Assembly (NCBI RefSeq): GCF_056712565.1
Contig: NZ_CM160072.1
Strand: one strand, 5' to 3'
Length of the DNA: 64,000 nt
The first letter of the stretch is position 1. The number at the start of each line of letters is the position of its first letter. Positions 1,888 to 11,108 of this stretch are shown here, one piece after another. Position numbers and translations under genes: made by a program. Under the pieces are notes generated by a model that saw only the letters and a program-made list of their open reading frames with translations, was not told where the DNA came from and did not search any database.

Positions 1888-3315
1888 ATGTCGATCAAAA
1901 CCAGTAATACAGATTTTAAGACACGCATTCGTCAGCAAATTGAAGATCCGATCATGCGCAAAGCGGTGGCAAACGCGCAGCAGCGTATTGGGGCAAATCG
2001 GCAAAAAATGGTCGATGAATTGGGGCACTGGGAGGAGTGGCGCGATCGGGCCGCCCAGATACGTGATCATGTTCTGAGTAATCTCGACGCTTATCTGTAC
2101 CAGCTCTCAGAAAAAGTGACGCAAAACGGAGGTCACGTCTATTTTGCAAAAACCAAAGAAGACGCCACCCGCTACATTTTACAGGTTGCCCAACGCAAAA
2201 ATGCCCGGAAGGTGGTGAAATCTAAATCGATGGTGACCGAAGAGATTGGTGTCAATCATGTGTTGCAGGATGCCGGGATTCAGGTGATTGAAACCGATCT
2301 GGGTGAATACATTCTCCAGCTGGATCAAGATCCGCCCTCTCATGTTGTGGTCCCGGCAATTCATAAAGATCGCCATCAGATCCGTCGAGTGCTACACGAA
2401 CATCTGGGCTATGAGGGGCCGGAAACGCCTGAAGCGATGACCTTATTCATTCGGCAAAAAATCCGCGAAGATTTCCTCAGTGCTGAAATAGGTATTACCG
2501 GCTGTAATTTCGCGGTGGCAGAGACCGGTTCGGTATGCCTGGTGACCAATGAAGGTAATGCGCGAATGTGTACCACGCTGCCTAAAACGCATATTGCAGT
2601 GATGGGAATGGAGCGTATTGCTCCCACGTTTGCAGAGGTAGATGTATTGATCACCATGCTGGCGCGCAGTGCCGTTGGTGCACGTTTGACGGGATACAAC
2701 ACCTGGCTGACAGGACCGCGCGAAGCGGGGCACGTTGATGGTCCTGAAGAGTTTCATCTGGTTATTGTCGATAACGGGCGTTCTGAGGTGCTGGCCTCTG
2801 AATTTCGGGATGTGCTGCGCTGTATTCGTTGCGGGGCTTGTATGAATACTTGTCCGGCATATCGCCATATTGGCGGTCATGGATATGGCTCTATTTATCC
2901 AGGGCCAATTGGTGCGGTGATTTCCCCGTTACTTGGCGGCTATAAAGATTTTAAAGATTTACCCTACGCCTGCTCTTTATGCACCGCTTGTGACAGCGTG
3001 TGTCCGGTGCGTATTCCGCTGTCAAAACTGATTTTGCGTCATCGTCGGGTGATGGCTGAAAAAGGGATCACCGCAAAAGCAGAGCAACGGGCGATAAAAA
3101 TGTTCGCTTATGCCAATAGTCATCCAGGATTGTGGAAAGTTGGGATGATGGCTGGTGCTCATGCGGCAAGCTGGTTTATCAATGGCGGCAAAACACCACT
3201 CAAATTTGGCGCGATTAGCGACTGGATGGAAGCACGCGATCTTCCTGAAGCTGACGGAGAGAGTTTCCGTAGTTGGTTTAAGAAACATCAGGCGCAGGAG
3301 AAAAAGAATGGATAA
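1888..3315 (+). CDS. ykgF: LutB-like iron-sulfur protein (YkgF)
   Basis: 475-aa ORF; two ferredoxin-type cysteine motifs visible (CIRCGACMNTCP and CSLCTACDSVCP); 10 bp after ykgE. Confidence 0.9.
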   Translation: MSIKTSNTDFKTRIRQQIEDPIMRKAVANAQQRIGANRQKMVDELGHWEEWRDRAAQIRDHVLSNLDAYLYQLSEKVTQNGGHVYFAKTKEDATRYILQVAQRKNARKVVKSKSMVTEEIGVNHVLQDAGIQVIETDLGEYILQLDQDPPSHVVVPAIHKDRHQIRRVLHEHLGYEGPETPEAMTLFIRQKIREDFLSAEIGITGCNFAVAETGSVCLVTNEGNARMCTTLPKTHIAVMGMERIAPTFAEVDVLITMLARSAVGARLTGYNTWLTGPREAGHVDGPEEFHLVIVDNGRSEVLASEFRDVLRCIRCGACMNTCPAYRHIGGHGYGSIYPGPIGAVISPLLGGYKDFKDLPYACSLCTACDSVCPVRIPLSKLILRHRRVMAEKGITAKAEQRAIKMFAYANSHPGLWKVGMMAGAHAASWFINGGKTPLKFGAISDWMEARDLPEADGESFRSWFKKHQAQEKKNG

Positions 3316-5097: not shown

Positions 5098-7395
5098 TTA
5101 CCAGGTCACATTGATACCAACTACACCCTGTAGCGGGTTCTCAATGTCGTCACCTTTGGTGTAGTCAAGGCTTGCATATGCTCCCATGTTTTTGGTGATA
5201 TCAGCCTGTACACCTGCACCCACGCGGAATGCTGCACCGTCAATGCTGGCATTGACAGACTCATCACCCAGACGGACTTTGTTGCCATCAGAGAATTCGT
5301 TCAGTGCGGCCAGATTCAGATAAGGTTTAACGGTCGCGTTGCCCACAGCGAAGTCATAACCCACGCGCGTACCGGCCTCACCCAGCACAGAGTTATAGCT
5401 GTCAGAATGAACGTCCACGCCGTTGAGTTGATAATCCACACCTTCCAGAGTCAGAGCAGACAGTTTGGCATATGGCTGAATAAACAGGCCATTACCGTCT
5501 TTCCATGTGTAACCGCCTTTAACCATCGCACCAAAACCATTGGTGTTAAAGTCAGCTTTGATGGTACCGCCACCATTCATCAGGCGAACATCTGCCGTGT
5601 TGCTGTAGTGACCAAACTGTGCAGCAGTATCAATGAAGATACCGTTGTTATACTGGCGGCTCAGGTAAGCGTGGAAGCTGTAACCTTCAGTGTCACCTTT
5701 GCTCTGCATGGTAGTCATGTCACCTTTCGCAGAAGACATCGCCACACCGGCCAGCCAGCTACCATCTTCAGTCATGAAGCGGGTATCACCACCCAGCATT
5801 ACACCATTTACATCCAGGTCATAGGATGCATTTCCCGCGGTGGTATGTTTCTGTTTACCGCCAAAGTACTGAATCCATACGCCACCCTTGTCATTTTCGC
5901 TCAGACGGACAGCATCCTGACGGGCGGAGAGCGTGTCAGCCTGCAGATTAGCGACGTTAGCCGGAGCAGCTGCCATTGCCTGAATCACGGAGCTGGCGTT
6001 GGATGCTTTATGCGTGTTTTTTACGAAATAAAAGTTACCATCAGCTCCCTGTGTCAGGTCATATTGATACAGACCACCTTCCGTTGTGCCTGTGGCTTTT
6101 AGAGTGCTGTCTTTGCCGGTAGAAATAAATGCCGTTTGTTCATTGATAAGATCCAATGAACCCGCACTGTAAACACGCAAGTCACCGCTCGCTTTACCGC
6201 TGATATCCAGAGTGTTTTCAGAAGAGGCATCAACAATCAGAGTGCCGTTTTGAGAAGCAAACGTGCCAGTATTGACTGTAGCCTTCGTGATATTAACCGT
6301 ACTGTCTTTTACTGCCAGAGCATCAACAGTTGAGGAACCCGTAACATTCCAGACAGACCCGTTTTGCAGAGATACACTGGCATCTCCTGCCCCTGAAACT
6401 TTGCCTTTCCAGACTGAACTATCGGAAAGATTTATATCCAGATCACTACCCGCTTTATCGCCGCTATTGAAGGTATAAGCATTACCTTCCCAGTAAGAGC
6501 GGGCAACGTTCATATTTACATTTGTTGTGGTACTGGCTGAATTCTCGCTTTCAGAAAGGGCCAGGACATCAGAGTAGATGGTTGAATCAGCAACAGACAA
6601 ATTTAAATTTTGCGTTGCTGAACCTGCGCCTTGTGCCGAAGCAGAGGCATAAATTGTTTGTTTATTATTAGCCGCCCCAATTACTGAGCCATCCTTAATA
6701 TTCAGGTTGACTGTATGAATTCCCGTCTTATTCCCGGCAGTAACTATTGTTTCAATCCCGCCATTAATAATATTTGAGTCAGCAAGGGTGATGTTGTCGG
6801 TTGCATCACCGTCAAAACCCTGCAACAAATTACCCTTTTGAGCAAAAATTGCCGTAGAGCCGTTGCTGTAACTCTTATTACCTTGAGCATTTATGGTTGT
6901 ACCATTGAGCGTTAAATTATTTCCCGTGGTCGCTTCCAGAGATATCCCTGTCGCACTACCTTTTTCATTTTTTGCAACGAAATTACCGCCATTAACAACA
7001 ACATCGCCAGTTGAATCAATGACCATTGCAGTCCGGACATAGGTGCCTTCACCTTGAGCTGTGATGGTGGAGTCTGTAGCATTAATCACAACATTTTTGT
7101 TACCACTAACTTTTACACCTTCAACGAAATCTTGGTTTACCGTTGATGCGGCGGTAATATCGTGACCGCCAAAAGTAACATTAAGGTCTTTATCTGAATC
7201 TGACGTTTCAATTGTTACGGCTGTAATCTTGTTATCACCGTTAATAACAACATCTTGATCCAGAGTCGTCTTCTCTGTATTCAGCGTAACCGGATCAGTT
7301 GATACCGTGCTATCAGTAGCGAATGCTGGTGCAGAAAGAGCCATAACAATAGCTGTCGCTAATGCGCTGCGGTAAAATGCCTTACTGTTTTTCAT
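5098..7395 (-). CDS. upaE: Type Va autotransporter: signal peptide, N/T/G/S-rich beta-helix-like passenger, C-terminal beta-barrel ending in W. Possibly UpaE
   Basis: Long ORF; start chosen at MKNSKAF (7395), which has a GGAG motif 9 nt upstream and a classical signal peptide; passenger is rich in short N/T/G repeats; C-terminal roughly 280 aa is barrel-like and ends GINVTW. Symbol by locus architecture from memory, not alignment. Confidence 0.7.
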   Translation of the reverse strand: MKNSKAFYRSALATAIVMALSAPAFATDSTVSTDPVTLNTEKTTLDQDVVINGDNKITAVTIETSDSDKDLNVTFGGHDITAASTVNQDFVEGVKVSGNKNVVINATDSTITAQGEGTYVRTAMVIDSTGDVVVNGGNFVAKNEKGSATGISLEATTGNNLTLNGTTINAQGNKSYSNGSTAIFAQKGNLLQGFDGDATDNITLADSNIINGGIETIVTAGNKTGIHTVNLNIKDGSVIGAANNKQTIYASASAQGAGSATQNLNLSVADSTIYSDVLALSESENSASTTTNVNMNVARSYWEGNAYTFNSGDKAGSDLDINLSDSSVWKGKVSGAGDASVSLQNGSVWNVTGSSTVDALAVKDSTVNITKATVNTGTFASQNGTLIVDASSENTLDISGKASGDLRVYSAGSLDLINEQTAFISTGKDSTLKATGTTEGGLYQYDLTQGADGNFYFVKNTHKASNASSVIQAMAAAPANVANLQADTLSARQDAVRLSENDKGGVWIQYFGGKQKHTTAGNASYDLDVNGVMLGGDTRFMTEDGSWLAGVAMSSAKGDMTTMQSKGDTEGYSFHAYLSRQYNNGIFIDTAAQFGHYSNTADVRLMNGGGTIKADFNTNGFGAMVKGGYTWKDGNGLFIQPYAKLSALTLEGVDYQLNGVDVHSDSYNSVLGEAGTRVGYDFAVGNATVKPYLNLAALNEFSDGNKVRLGDESVNASIDGAAFRVGAGVQADITKNMGAYASLDYTKGDDIENPLQGVVGINVTW

Positions 7396-7436: not shown

Positions 7437-8198
7437 TTATTTATATTTATGCAGAGATAAAGCCTGCGTCCCTGCATTTACCACCACGGAATACCTGTTG
7501 GTATTTCCGTTTTCACGCAATGTCATGGCATTCGTTGTTTCCAATGCATTTCCATCACCGTGAAAATTATTGCTGCTCAGCAGCAGGGCTTCCCGCAATG
7601 ACATGCTGTCCGGTATTCCCCAACGCTTTTTTAGCGACTGCTCGGCAAGCCATATCTGTCTTATCCCCGTTTTGAGAAACTGCGCACTGTATTCCCAGCT
7701 GTGTCCGGCAAGAAGTAACGACAACACCTTCTTTTGCTTTTCCGGGAAGCGTTCTGACATGACGATTGTCTTTGTGCGGTTATTCACCTCTTTCATAAAG
7801 ACAGAGTAACTGTCCATAACTGGCAAAATTTCTGCATGCTTCAGCCCTGAAAACCCACCAGAGGCATTTGCAATACTGATGACACGCTCTACTGACATTC
7901 CTGGTTTCAGTAACCTCAGGTTTTTGAGAACGCCAGAAATACTCACATCCGGTGGCAGAAAAAAGGGCGTGACGCACAACACCACCACGAATGAGTGATC
8001 CCGATAAAATCGGAACCACATTTCAGCGCATTCGGCAGGTCGCCCTGCCGATATCACGACACTCTGTGGCCTGTGCCGCAATTTATTGCGTAACTCCTCT
8101 TCTGTTCTGATGCAGGTAACATTGCCGACAGAACCGGTTGATAGAGCTGCGAACTGCGCTGGTACAATTCCTGAGGGACAGAAAAGAACGAAACGCAT
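7437..8198 (-). CDS. Hypothetical regulator with a degenerate LuxR/GerE-type HTH region
   Basis: 253-aa ORF directly upstream of the autotransporter (8-bp gap); segment LSLLLAGHSWEYSAQFLKTGIRQIWLAEQSLKKRWGI loosely resembles a LuxR HTH. Confidence 0.5.
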   Translation of the reverse strand: MRFVLFCPSGIVPAQFAALSTGSVGNVTCIRTEEELRNKLRHRPQSVVISAGRPAECAEMWFRFYRDHSFVVVLCVTPFFLPPDVSISGVLKNLRLLKPGMSVERVISIANASGGFSGLKHAEILPVMDSYSVFMKEVNNRTKTIVMSERFPEKQKKVLSLLLAGHSWEYSAQFLKTGIRQIWLAEQSLKKRWGIPDSMSLREALLLSSNNFHGDGNALETTNAMTLRENGNTNRYSVVVNAGTQALSLHKYK

Positions 8199-8351: not shown

Positions 8352-9146
8352 TCATAACAATCCTGGTCTTTTTTTAGATATATTTTTTCTTTGTCCGGAA
8401 AGTACTTTTCCGGAAATGGCGTCAGAATTTATTGATTCACCAACGGCAACTTTCTCTGGATAAAGGATTCCGGATACCATGTTCTGCACATACTGAGTGA
8501 GTCGATGAGCGGAATGTTGTCCGATATATTTTGCATGTAGCCGTATATTCCGTTTCACTCTGCTGTCACCGCATCCCGTATAGAGCAGCCTGAAATCGCT
8601 CAGTGTTCCCAGTCCAAGTTTCATTAAAGCCCGTGTGGCAATCGCATGCAGGGTCTTTGAACTGCGTTGTTCATAACGGGCAATCTCACTGAAACTCATG
8701 CCCTGCATCAGAATCTTAAGCACGCTCAACTCCCGTGCAGTCAGGAGCCAGAAATCGCTCATATCGCCGGGCAAAGGACGTAGTAACCAGCGGATAATTT
8801 GATTCTGATAACGACTCGCTGTCAGCATGGTGCCGATGCGTGGGAAGCCGTTATACAGACTTGCAGCAGGAGCATTATCGAACCAGTCGGAGTCACCGGT
8901 CAGGCAGACCTGCCATTGCCCGGCATCACTCCGCAAACGGGCGAGACAAGCCAGAAGAACCAACTCCCCCGAAGGAAGCGAAGGGATATCAGCTAACAGG
9001 TAGCCACAGGAGGTCTTTAAAACGAATTCAACCTCTGTAGTGACGTTGCTGTACACCCGCACGATATACCTGTCCGTTGGGATGAGAGACTCCAGTGCCA
9101 GCCTGGTGAACTGACAGGCACTGATAATAACCAGAGGCTTCTTCAT
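8352..9146 (-). CDS. ipuR: LuxR/GerE-family transcriptional regulator, possibly IpuR
   Basis: 264-aa ORF; clear LuxR-type HTH (LTARELSVLKILMQGMSFSEIARYEQRSSKTLHAIATRALMKLGL); first gene downstream of the candidate invertible element. Symbol by architecture only. Confidence 0.65.
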   Translation of the reverse strand: MKKPLVIISACQFTRLALESLIPTDRYIVRVYSNVTTEVEFVLKTSCGYLLADIPSLPSGELVLLACLARLRSDAGQWQVCLTGDSDWFDNAPAASLYNGFPRIGTMLTASRYQNQIIRWLLRPLPGDMSDFWLLTARELSVLKILMQGMSFSEIARYEQRSSKTLHAIATRALMKLGLGTLSDFRLLYTGCGDSRVKRNIRLHAKYIGQHSAHRLTQYVQNMVSGILYPEKVAVGESINSDAISGKVLSGQRKNISKKRPGLL

Positions 9147-9172
9147 TCAGACTCGTCCACGCCATTGCTACA

Positions 9173-9465
9173 AAACCTGACATTTTGATTCAAAATGTCA
9201 GGTTTGGTTTAATAGCCTGAATATTTAATTTTCTTGGAATATAAATCTGATTTGTTTGATTTTTATTGTTTTTAATTTTGTATTATTTAACAATATGGGC
9301 GAAAGTTAATCACTGGTATGACCTTTGTGATTAATCATTTCAAATCATGGGGTTATTTTACTTTAGCTAGAAATATCAACATGTTATGTGTTTTATTTAA
9401 TTGAATGGGCTGTTTTTTTATGGAAGAATTGAGGAAAACGTAGGAATCTGACATTTTGAATCAGA
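9173..9465. promoter_or_regulatory. Candidate invertible promoter switch: 12-bp perfect inverted repeats (tcaaaatgtcag at 9190-9201, ctgacattttga at 9448-9459) flank a 246-bp AT-rich segment; a 33-bp perfect palindrome spans 9173-9205
   Basis: Repeats read directly from the sequence; element sits between the recombinase stop (9476) and the LuxR gene start (9146), the same layout as fimE-fimS-fimA. Confidence 0.6.
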
Positions 9466-9475
9466 AGGTACTGTT

Positions 9476-10039
9476 TTAACGAGGCTTTTTTTTCCACACC
9501 CCTTTAAAACGAGCAGCATTACTGGCTGTGTATCTGACAGTATGCTGAATATTTCGATGACCCAGGTAATCCTGAAGTAGTCGGGTATCGACACCATTGT
9601 CAGCCAGAGCAAAACCACAGGCATGACGTAACATATGAGGATGTGCTTTTACAGCTAATCCTGCACGTTTTCCAGCCTCACGAATGATAGAAAAAAAATG
9701 TTGTCTGCTGATAGGGCGGCGTTTCCGGGAGAGAAAAAGCCAGTCTCCTTCAACTCCGTTTTCAATTAACTTCCTCTGCTTAAGCCACAACTTGATCAAA
9801 TTATATTCATCAGGAAGAAGAGGATGTGTTGTCGAGAAACCATTTTTAATACGCCGAATATTAAGTTGTTTTCCAGATGCATCAATATCGGATAAACGTA
9901 AATCAAGAAGTTCACTGGCCCTAAAACCGTGAATGAAAGCCATCATAATCAGACAGCGATTTCTTTCAGGAAAGGACATGCTCTGGGCTGCATCCATCAG
10001 CCTGTAGACTTCATCCTGTGTGAGATATTTTCTCGTCAT
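9476..10039 (-). CDS. ipuA: FimB/FimE-family tyrosine site-specific recombinase, possibly IpuA
   Basis: About 187-200 aa with FimB-like motifs (HGFRASE, GFSTTHPLL, HPHMLRH, CGFALA, DTRLLQDYLGHRNIQHTVRYTASNA); no fimbrial genes adjacent. ATG at 10039 preferred; alternative GTG at 10078. Confidence 0.8.
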   Translation of the reverse strand: MTRKYLTQDEVYRLMDAAQSMSFPERNRCLIMMAFIHGFRASELLDLRLSDIDASGKQLNIRRIKNGFSTTHPLLPDEYNLIKLWLKQRKLIENGVEGDWLFLSRKRRPISRQHFFSIIREAGKRAGLAVKAHPHMLRHACGFALADNGVDTRLLQDYLGHRNIQHTVRYTASNAARFKGVWKKKPR

Positions 10040-11108
10040 ACGCCACCGTGTACAGTTGTAAAAAAAAGAGAGGCACACCCAGATAAGTATGCCTGCAATC
10101 AGAACGTTATCGATGTAATCTCATTATCTCATTAATAAGATTTTTTGAATAGTAGTTCTACGCAACAGATTAAATATGAACTATTTATTGTGCAGCTTTT
10201 CTACAAGTCATTTTTAATGCGTGTTTTTATCTACTATAATGTGAAAAAAATAAATATTAAAACTATGAGTGACAGGTCGTGTGGGATGTGTATTACGTCT
10301 AATGCTTTAGTAATTTTTTATTATTTCTGAGATATTTAACATCATTTCCTGTGAGATTGTCTTGTTGTGTATCTAATTGATTTTAATTTTGTTTTTTTTG
10401 ATGCATAAATTTGGATGATAGAAAGTAAGATTAGCTTAATATCAATGATATGAATTTATAAATACATATTGTTGCAAGGTGTTCTTTACTTTTTTGGTCG
10501 TTAGTAAATCATTGTTAATGGGTTCTGTTCATAAATTAAAAATATTCATTTAAATGATTTTTACTTTTTGTATATCTCAATTTGTTTATTTTGCATTCAT
10601 TTGATGGAGAGTATTCCAACACTTTTTATTTTTCGCAAAAAACTTATTAACAACTTTTTATTATCAATTGAAAATTAATGTAAACTAAAATGTTAGCGAA
10701 GCGATAATCTTGTGCTAAAAAATATTTAAGCATGATGATTAATTAAAGAAGAGTAAAAATAAATCGCTGCTAATAAATTATACGAACCGTGTTTAAAGCT
10801 CCATGTGGTTTTGGTCTGACTTATTTTTGTACTCGTTACAAGAACCCTTTTCGTACATGCTAACCGTGAGCGGGAATGAACAGGTAACCATAGCCAGGAA
10901 CATTAGCGGCGTAATTCTTAAGCTGAGTGGTATTTCATCTGTAGTTTATCTGTGTATGCATAGCACCTTCATCAGCCAGATTGAGCAAGTCAGCTTAGAA
11001 TTTGCTGGTGAGATTGTCACGATGAAGCATGAGAGTTACCTCAGTGTTTTATATAAGGATTCGGTCCTCATAGTAGAACGGTAACTCTCAATCTGATAGG
11101 TTCCTGAG

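Follow-up and report, generated by a model that had tools for sequence, protein, structure and literature searches.

[quoted passage not shown] As such it is an already characterised switch and not a new candidate. To the published description, as far as it was read, we add a left site that is a full palindrome, an orientation census of 5,426 complete genomes, and a loss of exactly 271 bp that has recurred at this locus. We further propose, and regard as an evenly balanced proposition, that hyxS carries the means of its own loss, in that parallel synapsis by FimX would permanently excise the 271 bp, with at least nine such events represented among present-day genomes and a possible footprint of the reaction in strain 1002W03. 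The literature searched, which does not include Bateman & Seed 2012, mentions neither recurrent exact excision nor a near-symmetric core site, and these constitute a modest, testable addition.

The hyxS switch was described in 2012 (Bateman & Seed 2012, as cited in PMC6083910, PMC6458436 and PMC3789825). According to these later papers it adjoins fimX in UTI89 and CFT073 and controls hyxR (PMC6083910; PMC6458436; PMC3789825), it is bounded by 16-bp inverted repeats with FimX as the sole inverting recombinase (PMC6083910), and phase inversion of the hyxR promoter region by FimX is likewise attributed to Bateman & Seed 2012 in PMC3789825 and PMC8777976. The element in the window shares the position between ipbA and hyxR, the 16-bp inverted repeats and near-identity to the UTI89 locus. 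By megablast, the 901 bp around it (8900-9800) are 100% identical to strain ZJ3920, and the flanks are 99.8% identical to UTI89 (NC_007946), a value taken from the flank matches of an inverted query, with the UTI89 interior in the orientation of the window. Compared with the PAI-X hyxS of UTI89 and CFT073, this is the same locus with the same gene order, 99.8-100% DNA identity and no differences in the element. On the 100%-identical DNA, RefSeq names the genes ipbA ("also known as HbiF and FimX"), hyxR, hyxA and hyxB, and the order ykgH / hyxB hyxA hyxR / ipbA / betA, read from RefSeq annotation and the open reading frames of the window, is that of PAI-X. The sequence-only reading of this DNA, which had proposed an invertible switch next to a LuxR-type gene that it called ipuR, was therefore right in kind and wrong in name: the genes are hyxR and ipbA/fimX of PAI-X and not ipuR and ipuA, and the ipu name is likely a mislabel. 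The genes of the locus are as follows.

9476-10039, minus strand: ipbA (= fimX = hbiF), FimB/FimE-family tyrosine DNA invertase, 187 aa (RefSeq, NCBIfam, Pfam)
8352-9146, minus strand: hyxR, LuxR-type regulator, 264 aa, first gene downstream of the switch (RefSeq, Pfam)
7437-8198, minus strand: hyxA, 253 aa (RefSeq annotation, window open reading frames)
5098-7395, minus strand: hyxB (= upaB), outer-membrane autotransporter, last gene of hyxRAB (RefSeq, window open reading frames)

The neighbouring recombinase expected of a Fim-type switch, a tyrosine recombinase of the FimB/FimE family, is ipbA, whose product scores 251.6 bits against the NCBIfam "tyrosine-type DNA invertase" model PRK09870 (cut-off 221) and 233.2 bits against PRK09871 (cut-off 222) and also matches Pfam PF00589. 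It is the one recombinase gene at the locus, followed by 1 kb of non-coding DNA and then betA. Residues 135-181 of HyxR form a Pfam GerE helix-turn-helix (E = 3.9e-6), with no NCBIfam family found for the protein; HyxA matched neither Pfam nor NCBIfam and is reported to act in O-antigen chain length (PMC3789825, from which the equation of hyxB with upaB is also taken). A search of Rfam gave no match between 9000 and 11150.

The element itself consists of a short unique interior and two ends, each of which extends beyond the repeat that bounds it (none of these features is assigned a strand).

9173-9205: left (hyxR-proximal) core site, perfect palindrome AAACCTGACATTT-TGATTCA-AAATGTCAGGTTT, centred on T9189
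9186-9201: IRL, 16-bp perfect inverted repeat TGATTCAAAATGTCAG; the junctions of natural inverted alleles fall inside it
9202-9447: hyxS unique interior, 246 bp, 26% G+C, holding the hyxR promoter according to the literature; reverse-complemented in natural alleles
9444-9476: right (ipbA-proximal) core site GAATCTGACATTT-TGAATCA-GAAGGTACTGTTT, centred on A9460
9448-9463: IRR, 16-bp repeat CTGACATTTTGAATCA, with the heptamer TGAATCA at 9457-9463

The sequence-only reading gave every coordinate and sequence exactly. Copies of the 12-bp repeat CTGACATTTTGA lie exactly where it had them, at 9177-9188 (plus), 9190-9201 (minus) and 9448-9459 (plus), and a search of the 64-kb window that tolerated one mismatch found no fourth copy; at this tolerance 0.47 matches are expected and none of 100 shuffles reached three. 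Its 12-bp copies are exact, and the perfect inverted repeat to which they belong is really 16 bp long. The 33-bp perfect palindrome that it reported at 9173-9205 is a perfect 16+1+16, the shorter palindrome at the right copy is present (TCTGA at 9447-9451, TCAGA at 9461-9465), the distances to the recombinase stop (9476-9459 = 17) and to the LuxR start (9173-9146 = 27) are right, and the 246-bp interior is AT-rich as described, at 26% G+C compared to 50.7% for the window.

By our own arithmetic a 16+1+16 palindrome has a chance expectation of about 64,000 x 4^-16, or roughly 1e-5, in a stretch of this length. The left palindrome holds both a direct copy (9177-9188) and an inverted copy (9190-9201) of the repeat, and its 25-bp core, CTGACATTTTGATTCAAAATGTCAG, is unchanged in 10 of the 11 intact loci compared, the most diverged ones included; the exception is RM14721, in which the outer flank of the core differs (AAATCTGACA). 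One further genome, 1002W03, has an intact switch in forward orientation with A in place of T at the centre of its left site. At the right end the whole left palindrome recurs in degenerate form (82% complementarity over 33 nt), with a perfect inner arm and an outer arm that is degenerate (8/13 by hand count) yet conserved across systems; IRR ends 12 bp beyond the recombinase stop codon.

This arrangement suggests that each end of hyxS is a full FimB-type core site, centred at 9189 and 9460, in which a putative recombinase-binding arm of 9-13 bp is followed by a central 7-bp overlap, TGA(T/A)TCA, and by a second, inverted arm. The two-arm pattern of Fim-type core sites is present at both ends as a matter of sequence, and the first 7 bp of IRL (9186-9192, TGATTCA) would then be the crossover heptamer. 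The heptamer, TGAWTCA, is palindromic save for its central base pair. Reading it as the overlap rests on an alignment of four systems, in which the ends of hyxS were compared to those of fimS (MG1655), the Salmonella T1-antigen switch and the L028/L029 cassette, the Salmonella and L028 loci having been found by protein search. The target-side site reads CTGACATTT-TGATTCA-AAATGTCAG in hyxS, CTGACATAA-TGGTTCA-AAATGTCAG in L028 and TTAACAATA-TGATTCA-AAAGGTAAA in Salmonella (TTAACTTTT in subsp. houtenae), while IRL of fimS reads AAGACAAT-TGGGGCCA-AACTGTCC, with the same GACA-N13-TGTC spacing as the left site of hyxS. Dyad arms around a central block are thus common to the left site of hyxS, fimS IRL, L028 and the Salmonella T1 switch. 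In hyxS, L028 and Salmonella, the two ends of a switch become identical exactly from the outer edge of the heptamer inward, and on the recombinase side the outer arm TCAGAAnGnAC is conserved as TCAGAAgGtAC (hyxS), TCAGAAtGaAC (L028) and TCAGAAcGtAC (Salmonella). In fimS, the 9-bp repeat, which we take to be the crossover region, sits at the centre of the dyad. The octamer TCAAAATG occurs in another register at the inner flank of fimS IRR, so that an alternative core at TGTCAG may be possible.

Each of these systems also departs from hyxS. Like hyxS, fimS is acted on by the same recombinase family (FimB/FimE, and FimX too), is an AT-rich promoter segment of about 300 bp and lies between recombinase and target; by contrast, it is 314 bp long, its repeats (TTGGGGCCA) measure 9 bp against 16 bp in hyxS, and comparing its centre with the reverse complement shows 3 mismatches in the central 7 positions (hand count), against one for hyxS. 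FimB, FimE and FimX turn fimS; for hyxS, FimX is the only recombinase reported to cause inversion (PMC6083910). The recombinase of the Salmonella T1-antigen switch (PMC11294581), STM0716, is 72% identical to FimX, and this switch shares with hyxS the heptamer TGATTCA/TGAATCA and the recombinase-side outer arm; according to its authors its repeats are identical to those of PAI-X (PMC11294581). Its inner arms are nonetheless GTTAA where hyxS has GTCAG, its target-side site is only loosely palindromic, the direct repeats at its two heptamers amount to just 3+3 bp, its interior has no detectable similarity to that of hyxS, and its downstream genes make polysaccharide. The L028/L029 cassette, a paralogous one, lies beside acetoin genes; its recombinase shares 81% identity with FimX and is accompanied by two regulator-like genes and an autotransporter. 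The heptamer of this cassette, TGAACCA/TGGTTCA, is asymmetric at 3 of 7 positions (hand count), unlike that of hyxS. The interiors of hyxS, the Salmonella switch and L028 aligned no better than shuffles in either orientation. A small internal dyad with a spacing of 141-142 bp hints that these three interiors are colinear.

Natural genomes carry the element in both orientations. Our census used 8900-9800 as a megablast query against 5,426 complete E. coli genomes and found the locus in 1,897, of which 1,776 have the orientation of the window (including UTI89, S88, APEC O1 and NU14) and at least 16 have the inverted allele, as 10 full-length copies and six or more locked remnants; among carriers, approximately 94% are in the reference orientation, 1% are inverted and 5% have lost the switch. 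When 9202-9447 was reverse-complemented in silico within the window allele, the resulting query matched 10 genomes over all 901 bases in one piece, at 96.8-99.7% identity, as would be expected if the copies at 9190 and 9448 bound an invertible segment in the way the sequence-only reading had claimed. The junctions of these alleles, read base by base in four of the ten and in RM14721, are as predicted (left, ...TCAAAATGTCAG / ATTCCTACG; right, ...AAACCAAAC / CTGACATTTTGAATCAGAAGG). Both orientations of a Fim-type switch thus exist, with their junctions within the inverted repeats, and the possibility that the segment is fixed in one orientation in all isolates is contradicted by the complete genomes. 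The same flank haplotypes carry forward alleles in some genomes and inverted ones in others (H3 and YF-1 form one such pair, the window and APEC O18 another), which indicates that the inversions are recent and recurrent. The inversion step is published, and the natural alleles in both orientations support it here; phage selection for a hyxR "invertase inversion" has also been described independently (PMC12361893). In the mechanism that we favour, IpbA/FimX would recombine 9186-9201 with 9448-9463, flipping the 246-bp interior together with the hyxR promoter and so setting the hyxR-hyxA-hyxB operon ON or OFF.

Some loci appear to be locked. In six more genomes, mostly from dogs, the match to the inverted query covers the first 693 of its bases, and in RM14721, the one of the six examined, ipbA is cut by IS66; one additional genome has an IS3-truncated remnant in the inverted orientation. 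The forward left junction of the O157:H7-type locus is matched by about 295 genomes, and in the locus of this type that was examined (DEC4E) ipbA is frameshifted. We count RM14721 and DEC4E, both with a broken ipbA, as indirect support for FimX dependence.

Three indirect points suggest that the orientation of the window is OFF: the large majority of locus-bearing genomes have it, the orientation of the Salmonella switch that predominates in GenBank is OFF, and hyxS is locked OFF in CFT073-derived strains (PMC6083910). A consensus promoter scan placed one weak minus-strand site at 9309-9282 and returned 4 sites, compared to 7.8 in shuffles.

The sequence-only reading had recorded the direct copy of the repeat at 9177, and its consequence, a recurrent and precise deletion, was missed there. 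The first trace of this deletion was a pair of weak megablast matches that spanned 630 instead of 901 bases. In FDAARGOS_1303, exactly 271 bp are missing and the spacer between hyxR and ipbA is 58 bp long; the direct copies that start at 9177 and 9448 lie the same 271 bp apart.

9190-9460, no strand: natural deletion, 271 bp, giving the T-junction variant; removal of 9189-9459 gives the A-junction variant

The exact 271-bp loss, joined at the direct repeat, is found in 89 of the 1,897 locus-bearing genomes. Seventy of them have the T junction, ...CTGACATTTTGA-T-TCAGAAGG (...TTTTGA-T-TCAGAAGG), and 19 the A junction, ...CTGACATTTTGA-A-TCAGAAGG (...TTTTGA-A-TCAGAAGG), other matches of the A-junction query being partial matches to inverted alleles that were left out of the count. 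No 28-mer of the junction probes occurs in undeleted, inverted or reverse-strand sequence, and megablast therefore seeds on real junctions only. An assembly artefact was considered and rejected, since the junction k-mers need real reads and the allele is passed on within a widespread lineage, recurring in related strains that were sequenced in several countries. A bypass of the hairpin formed by the 16-bp repeats was likewise rejected, since it predicts a loss of 278 bp and the junction CTGACATTT/GAAGG, unlike the junctions observed.

We then compared about 2 kb of flanking sequence among 14 deletion loci, 7 forward loci, 4 intact inverted loci and the IS66-locked RM14721. The identical 271 bp are absent from all 14 E. 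coli deletion loci compared, and ipbA and hyxR are intact in all 14. Deletion alleles occur on at least 8 haplotype backgrounds, and four haplogroups hold both deleted and intact alleles that differ by 2 bases or fewer in the roughly 2 kb of flank: the window and ZJ3920 (forward) with APEC O18 (inverted) and FDAARGOS_1303 (deleted, T); ATCC 25922 (forward) with clone D i14 (deleted, A); MNCRE44 (forward) with SA186 (deleted, T) and KE54 (deleted, A); and GPEC1035 (inverted) with five deleted-T strains from four countries. SA186 and KE54 thus place both junction variants within one haplogroup. Because the deletion alleles are nested among intact flank haplogroups in this way, we infer at least nine independent, base-exact losses. 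A FimX search of genome contigs yielded a single locus, in Escherichia sp., and no Salmonella locus; the cryptic-clade Escherichia sp. MOD1-EC7003 has the switchless arrangement too.

We lean towards the view that these losses are the work of FimX itself, which would occasionally excise the switch owing to weak site polarity. With Cre, Flp and other simple tyrosine recombinases, the polarity of a site is set by the asymmetry of the overlap alone, and symmetric overlaps allow both inversion and excision; Hoess and colleagues in 1986 (lox) and Senecoff and Cox in 1986 (FRT) reportedly obtained both reactions with symmetric-spacer sites. The left site of hyxS is a perfect palindrome, and hence its direction rests on the central base pair alone (T9189 versus A9460). 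In antiparallel alignment the overlaps would match at 7 of 7 positions (TGAATCA with TGAATCA) and give inversion, the normal reaction; in parallel alignment they would match at 6 of 7 (TGATTCA with TGAATCA) and could give a rare, irreversible excision of a 271-bp circle with the expected junction GGAATCTGACATTTTGAWTCAAAATGTCAGGTTT. A single central heterology would be predicted to lower parallel recombination and not to abolish it. Strand exchange on either side of the centre would leave a T/T or A/A heteroduplex, from which the T and A junctions could segregate; an alternative core at TGTCAG, on the other hand, predicts the A junction only. The lox and FRT precedents share with this proposal a polarity that derives from overlap asymmetry, although they involve engineered sites and unrelated recombinases, and hyxS retains one asymmetric base pair, for which reason excision is proposed to be rare and not equal to inversion. 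By the same reasoning the centre of fimS and the heptamer of L028, both asymmetric at 3 of 7 positions, should keep those switches from leaking by excision. The central A of 1002W03 could be the footprint of a heteroduplex repaired after an aborted parallel synapse, or a plain mutation; a right site with a central T was not seen in a junction-probe search of complete E. coli genomes. In about 5% of the E. coli genomes that have the locus, excision of this kind would have turned a reversible ON/OFF switch into a permanent setting. The effect of the deletion on hyxRAB could be loss of the promoter or, with the hairpin gone, read-through from ipbA.

A less probable, though serious, contender is that the deletions are independent of the recombinase, FimX only inverts, and replication slippage or another illegitimate event joins the copies of CTGACATTTTGA(T/A)TCA at 9177-9192 and 9448-9463. 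These form a direct repeat that is identical at 15 of 16 positions (12+1+3 bp) over a distance of 271 bp, and by our reasoning slippage would retain whichever repeat is copied first, giving T or A according to the direction of replication. Slippage also accords with a search of the 5,426 genomes for a T-centre tandem duplication or circle junction, which found none (the A-centre circle junction is identical to the left junction of the inverted allele, so this search covers the T centre), and with a whole-genome SVRE study of FimX over-expression, which reports inversion of hyxS and mentions no deletion there (PMC6458436). Set against this, at least nine independent, base-exact fixations among about 1,900 genomes are many for a 12-bp repeat, ipbA is intact in each of the 14 E. 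coli deletion alleles examined, and the end points of the deletion are the centres of the two proposed recombinase core sites. The 79 of the 89 deletion genomes that were listed include no O157:H7-type strain, which also speaks against slippage, if weakly, given that the group of about 295 such genomes is clonal.

Another main or additional role can be imagined for the left palindrome: an operator for a dimeric regulator such as HyxR, or a terminator or attenuator hairpin in the hyxR leader. We consider this unlikely. The ends of the palindrome, ACCTG...CAGGT, do recall those of lux boxes, yet CTG and CAG are 19 nt apart here compared to 10 in lux-type boxes. On the hyxR strand it would form a 15-bp RNA stem in a 101-nt leader (-33.4 kcal/mol, z = -5.1) followed by UUUUGU, but the promoter/terminator scan did not flag it as a terminator. 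The outer arm is superfluous for explaining inversion as such, and the deletion destroys the hairpin and leaves ipbA 58 bp from hyxR; however, the same dyad with its GACA-N13-TGTC spacing is found at fimS IRL and L028, and the Salmonella switch has one with other arm sequence, an arrangement in keeping with a recombinase core site. A role as operator or hairpin is in any case compatible with reading the palindrome as a recombinase site.

It is highly improbable that the switchless allele is ancestral, with the 271 bp gained later by insertion at a lone core site. Such an allele could plausibly be one complete core site, and a switchless arrangement occurs in the cryptic-clade MOD1-EC7003, but deletion alleles lie within 2 differences per 2 kb of intact ones in at least four haplogroups, both junction variants occur in one haplogroup, 1,792 genomes keep the switch (1,776 forward, 16 inverted) against 89 without it, and homologous switches exist in Salmonella and the L028 cassette. 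We give almost no credence to the element being ipuS, the IpuA/IpuB switch upstream of ipuR-upaE, as the earlier gene name implied: the layout (recombinase, spacer of about 300 bp, LuxR-type gene, autotransporter) is similar, as are the promoter inversion upstream of LuxR-type and autotransporter genes and the activity of FimX on the CFT073 ipuS (PMC6083910), but ipuS belongs to a different island, is 260 bp long, has 7-bp repeats of which the distal one falls within ipuA, with truncation of IpuA on inversion, is acted on by four recombinases and has two neighbouring recombinase genes and a 317-bp spacer (PMC6083910), whereas here 16-bp repeats lie outside a single recombinase gene, the spacer is 329 bp and the RefSeq names are ipbA and hyxR.

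As it was given, the sequence-only finding adds to the knowledge of 2012 only the correction of the name, hyx and not ipu. The population data presented here amount to a census of switch states over 5,426 complete genomes, and FimX excision from near-symmetric sites yields the hypothesis that, with Fim-family recombinases, the symmetry of the sites decides the proportion of inversion to excision; how these enzymes recognise their sites has been called an open question (PMC6458436). Loss of the switch would fix hyxRAB expression, and the operon has been linked to nitrosative-stress tolerance, macrophage survival, O-antigen chain length, serum resistance and transient phage resistance (PMC8777976, PMC3789825, PMC12361893); knowing which strains have the 271-bp allele could therefore be relevant to the interpretation of ExPEC and APEC phenotypes. 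For read sets, the sequence diagnostic of the deletion is AACCTGACATTTTGAWTCAGAAGGTAC.

Using an in-silico inverted 901-bp allele as the query, we searched 5,426 complete E. coli genomes and found six that match it over its first 693 bases. These are mostly dog isolates, forming one group that is approximately 5% diverged from the window. In RM14721, the one of the six that we examined (NZ_CP027105, 2501-3800), the switch lies in the orientation opposite to that of the window, and an IS66 insertion leaves only the last 114 nt of ipbA. The left outer arm in this lineage reads AAATCTGACA, and as a result its palindrome is longest when the switch is inverted.

Switch orientation may also bear on a published report that Kapi1 lysogeny in E. 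coli MP1 is accompanied, under every condition, by a strong rise in hyxRAB/PAI-X expression (PMC12922286). A simple alternative cause of this rise would be that hyxS orientation differed between the clones being compared, and the passages of that article consulted here do not discuss it.

In the O157:H7 strain DEC4E (L018, 1553-3179), hyxR carries an internal stop and ipbA a frameshift. Despite this damage, the switch and both of its core sites are intact and stand in the window orientation. Approximately 295 complete genomes match the left junction of this type at 99% or more. The locus looks like a fossil switch.

Strain 1002W03 (NZ_CP147056, 915-947) has an intact, forward switch whose left palindrome is centred on A rather than T, so that TGAATCA stands at both ends in direct orientation; it is the sole genome in which we found an A-centred left palindrome together with an intact switch. 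Escherichia sp. MOD1-EC7003 (L025, 1135-1195), representative of a cryptic species, encodes a FimX that is 97% identical, followed directly by one hybrid core site (reverse complement, ACATGACATTTTGATTCAGAATGTACTG) with no invertible element at the locus, a switchless architecture that it has in common with the E. coli deletion alleles.

RNA folding of the hyxR leader (9130-9230, minus strand) indicates that the palindrome, as RNA, forms a 15-bp hairpin (z = -5.1) followed by UUUUGU. Because the 271-bp deletion removes half of this hairpin and leaves ipbA 58 bp from hyxR, read-through could be changed in the deletion alleles. Upstream of the recombinase gene there is a second hairpin:

10061-10094, minus strand: hairpin resembling a terminator, with a T-run after it (AGGCATACTTATCTGGGTGTGCCT CTCTTTTTTT)

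This element lies on the ipbA strand, approximately 20-30 nt upstream of the start codon, and a promoter/terminator scan placed a promoter-like site upstream of it at 10260-10233; it could be a leader or attenuator that governs recombinase expression. The ipbA-betA spacer (10080-11108), approximately 1 kb long and very AT-rich, contains no convincing gene; a hypothetical ORF of approximately 134 nt is annotated there in some RefSeq records and is frameshifted in others. The spacer probably carries the ipbA regulatory region.

A paralogous cassette and the Salmonella T1 switch (L026) provide points of comparison for the switch:

L028 3040-3360 and L029 3040-3400: switch region of the paralogous cassette, neighbouring acetolactate decarboxylase/synthase genes
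Window 9313-9323, L026 ~3218-3230 and L028 ~3217-3229: small dyad or partial copy

The recombinase of the cassette shares 81% identity with FimX; alongside it are an autotransporter and a pair of genes of approximately 245 aa. The cassette switch has 18-bp repeats (TGGTTCAAAATGTCAGAT) with a strongly asymmetric heptamer, TGAACCA. Within the L029 switch there is an extra 41-bp insertion that can form a hairpin. Both the Salmonella switch and the L028 switch contain the dyad, CTGGT-N3-ACCAG, in their interior, where 141-142 bp separate it from the middle of the heptamer on the recombinase side. The hyxS interior has the dyad in part, as CTGGTATGACC, and the spacing there is equal (142 bp to 9460). 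An accessory protein may bind at this dyad.
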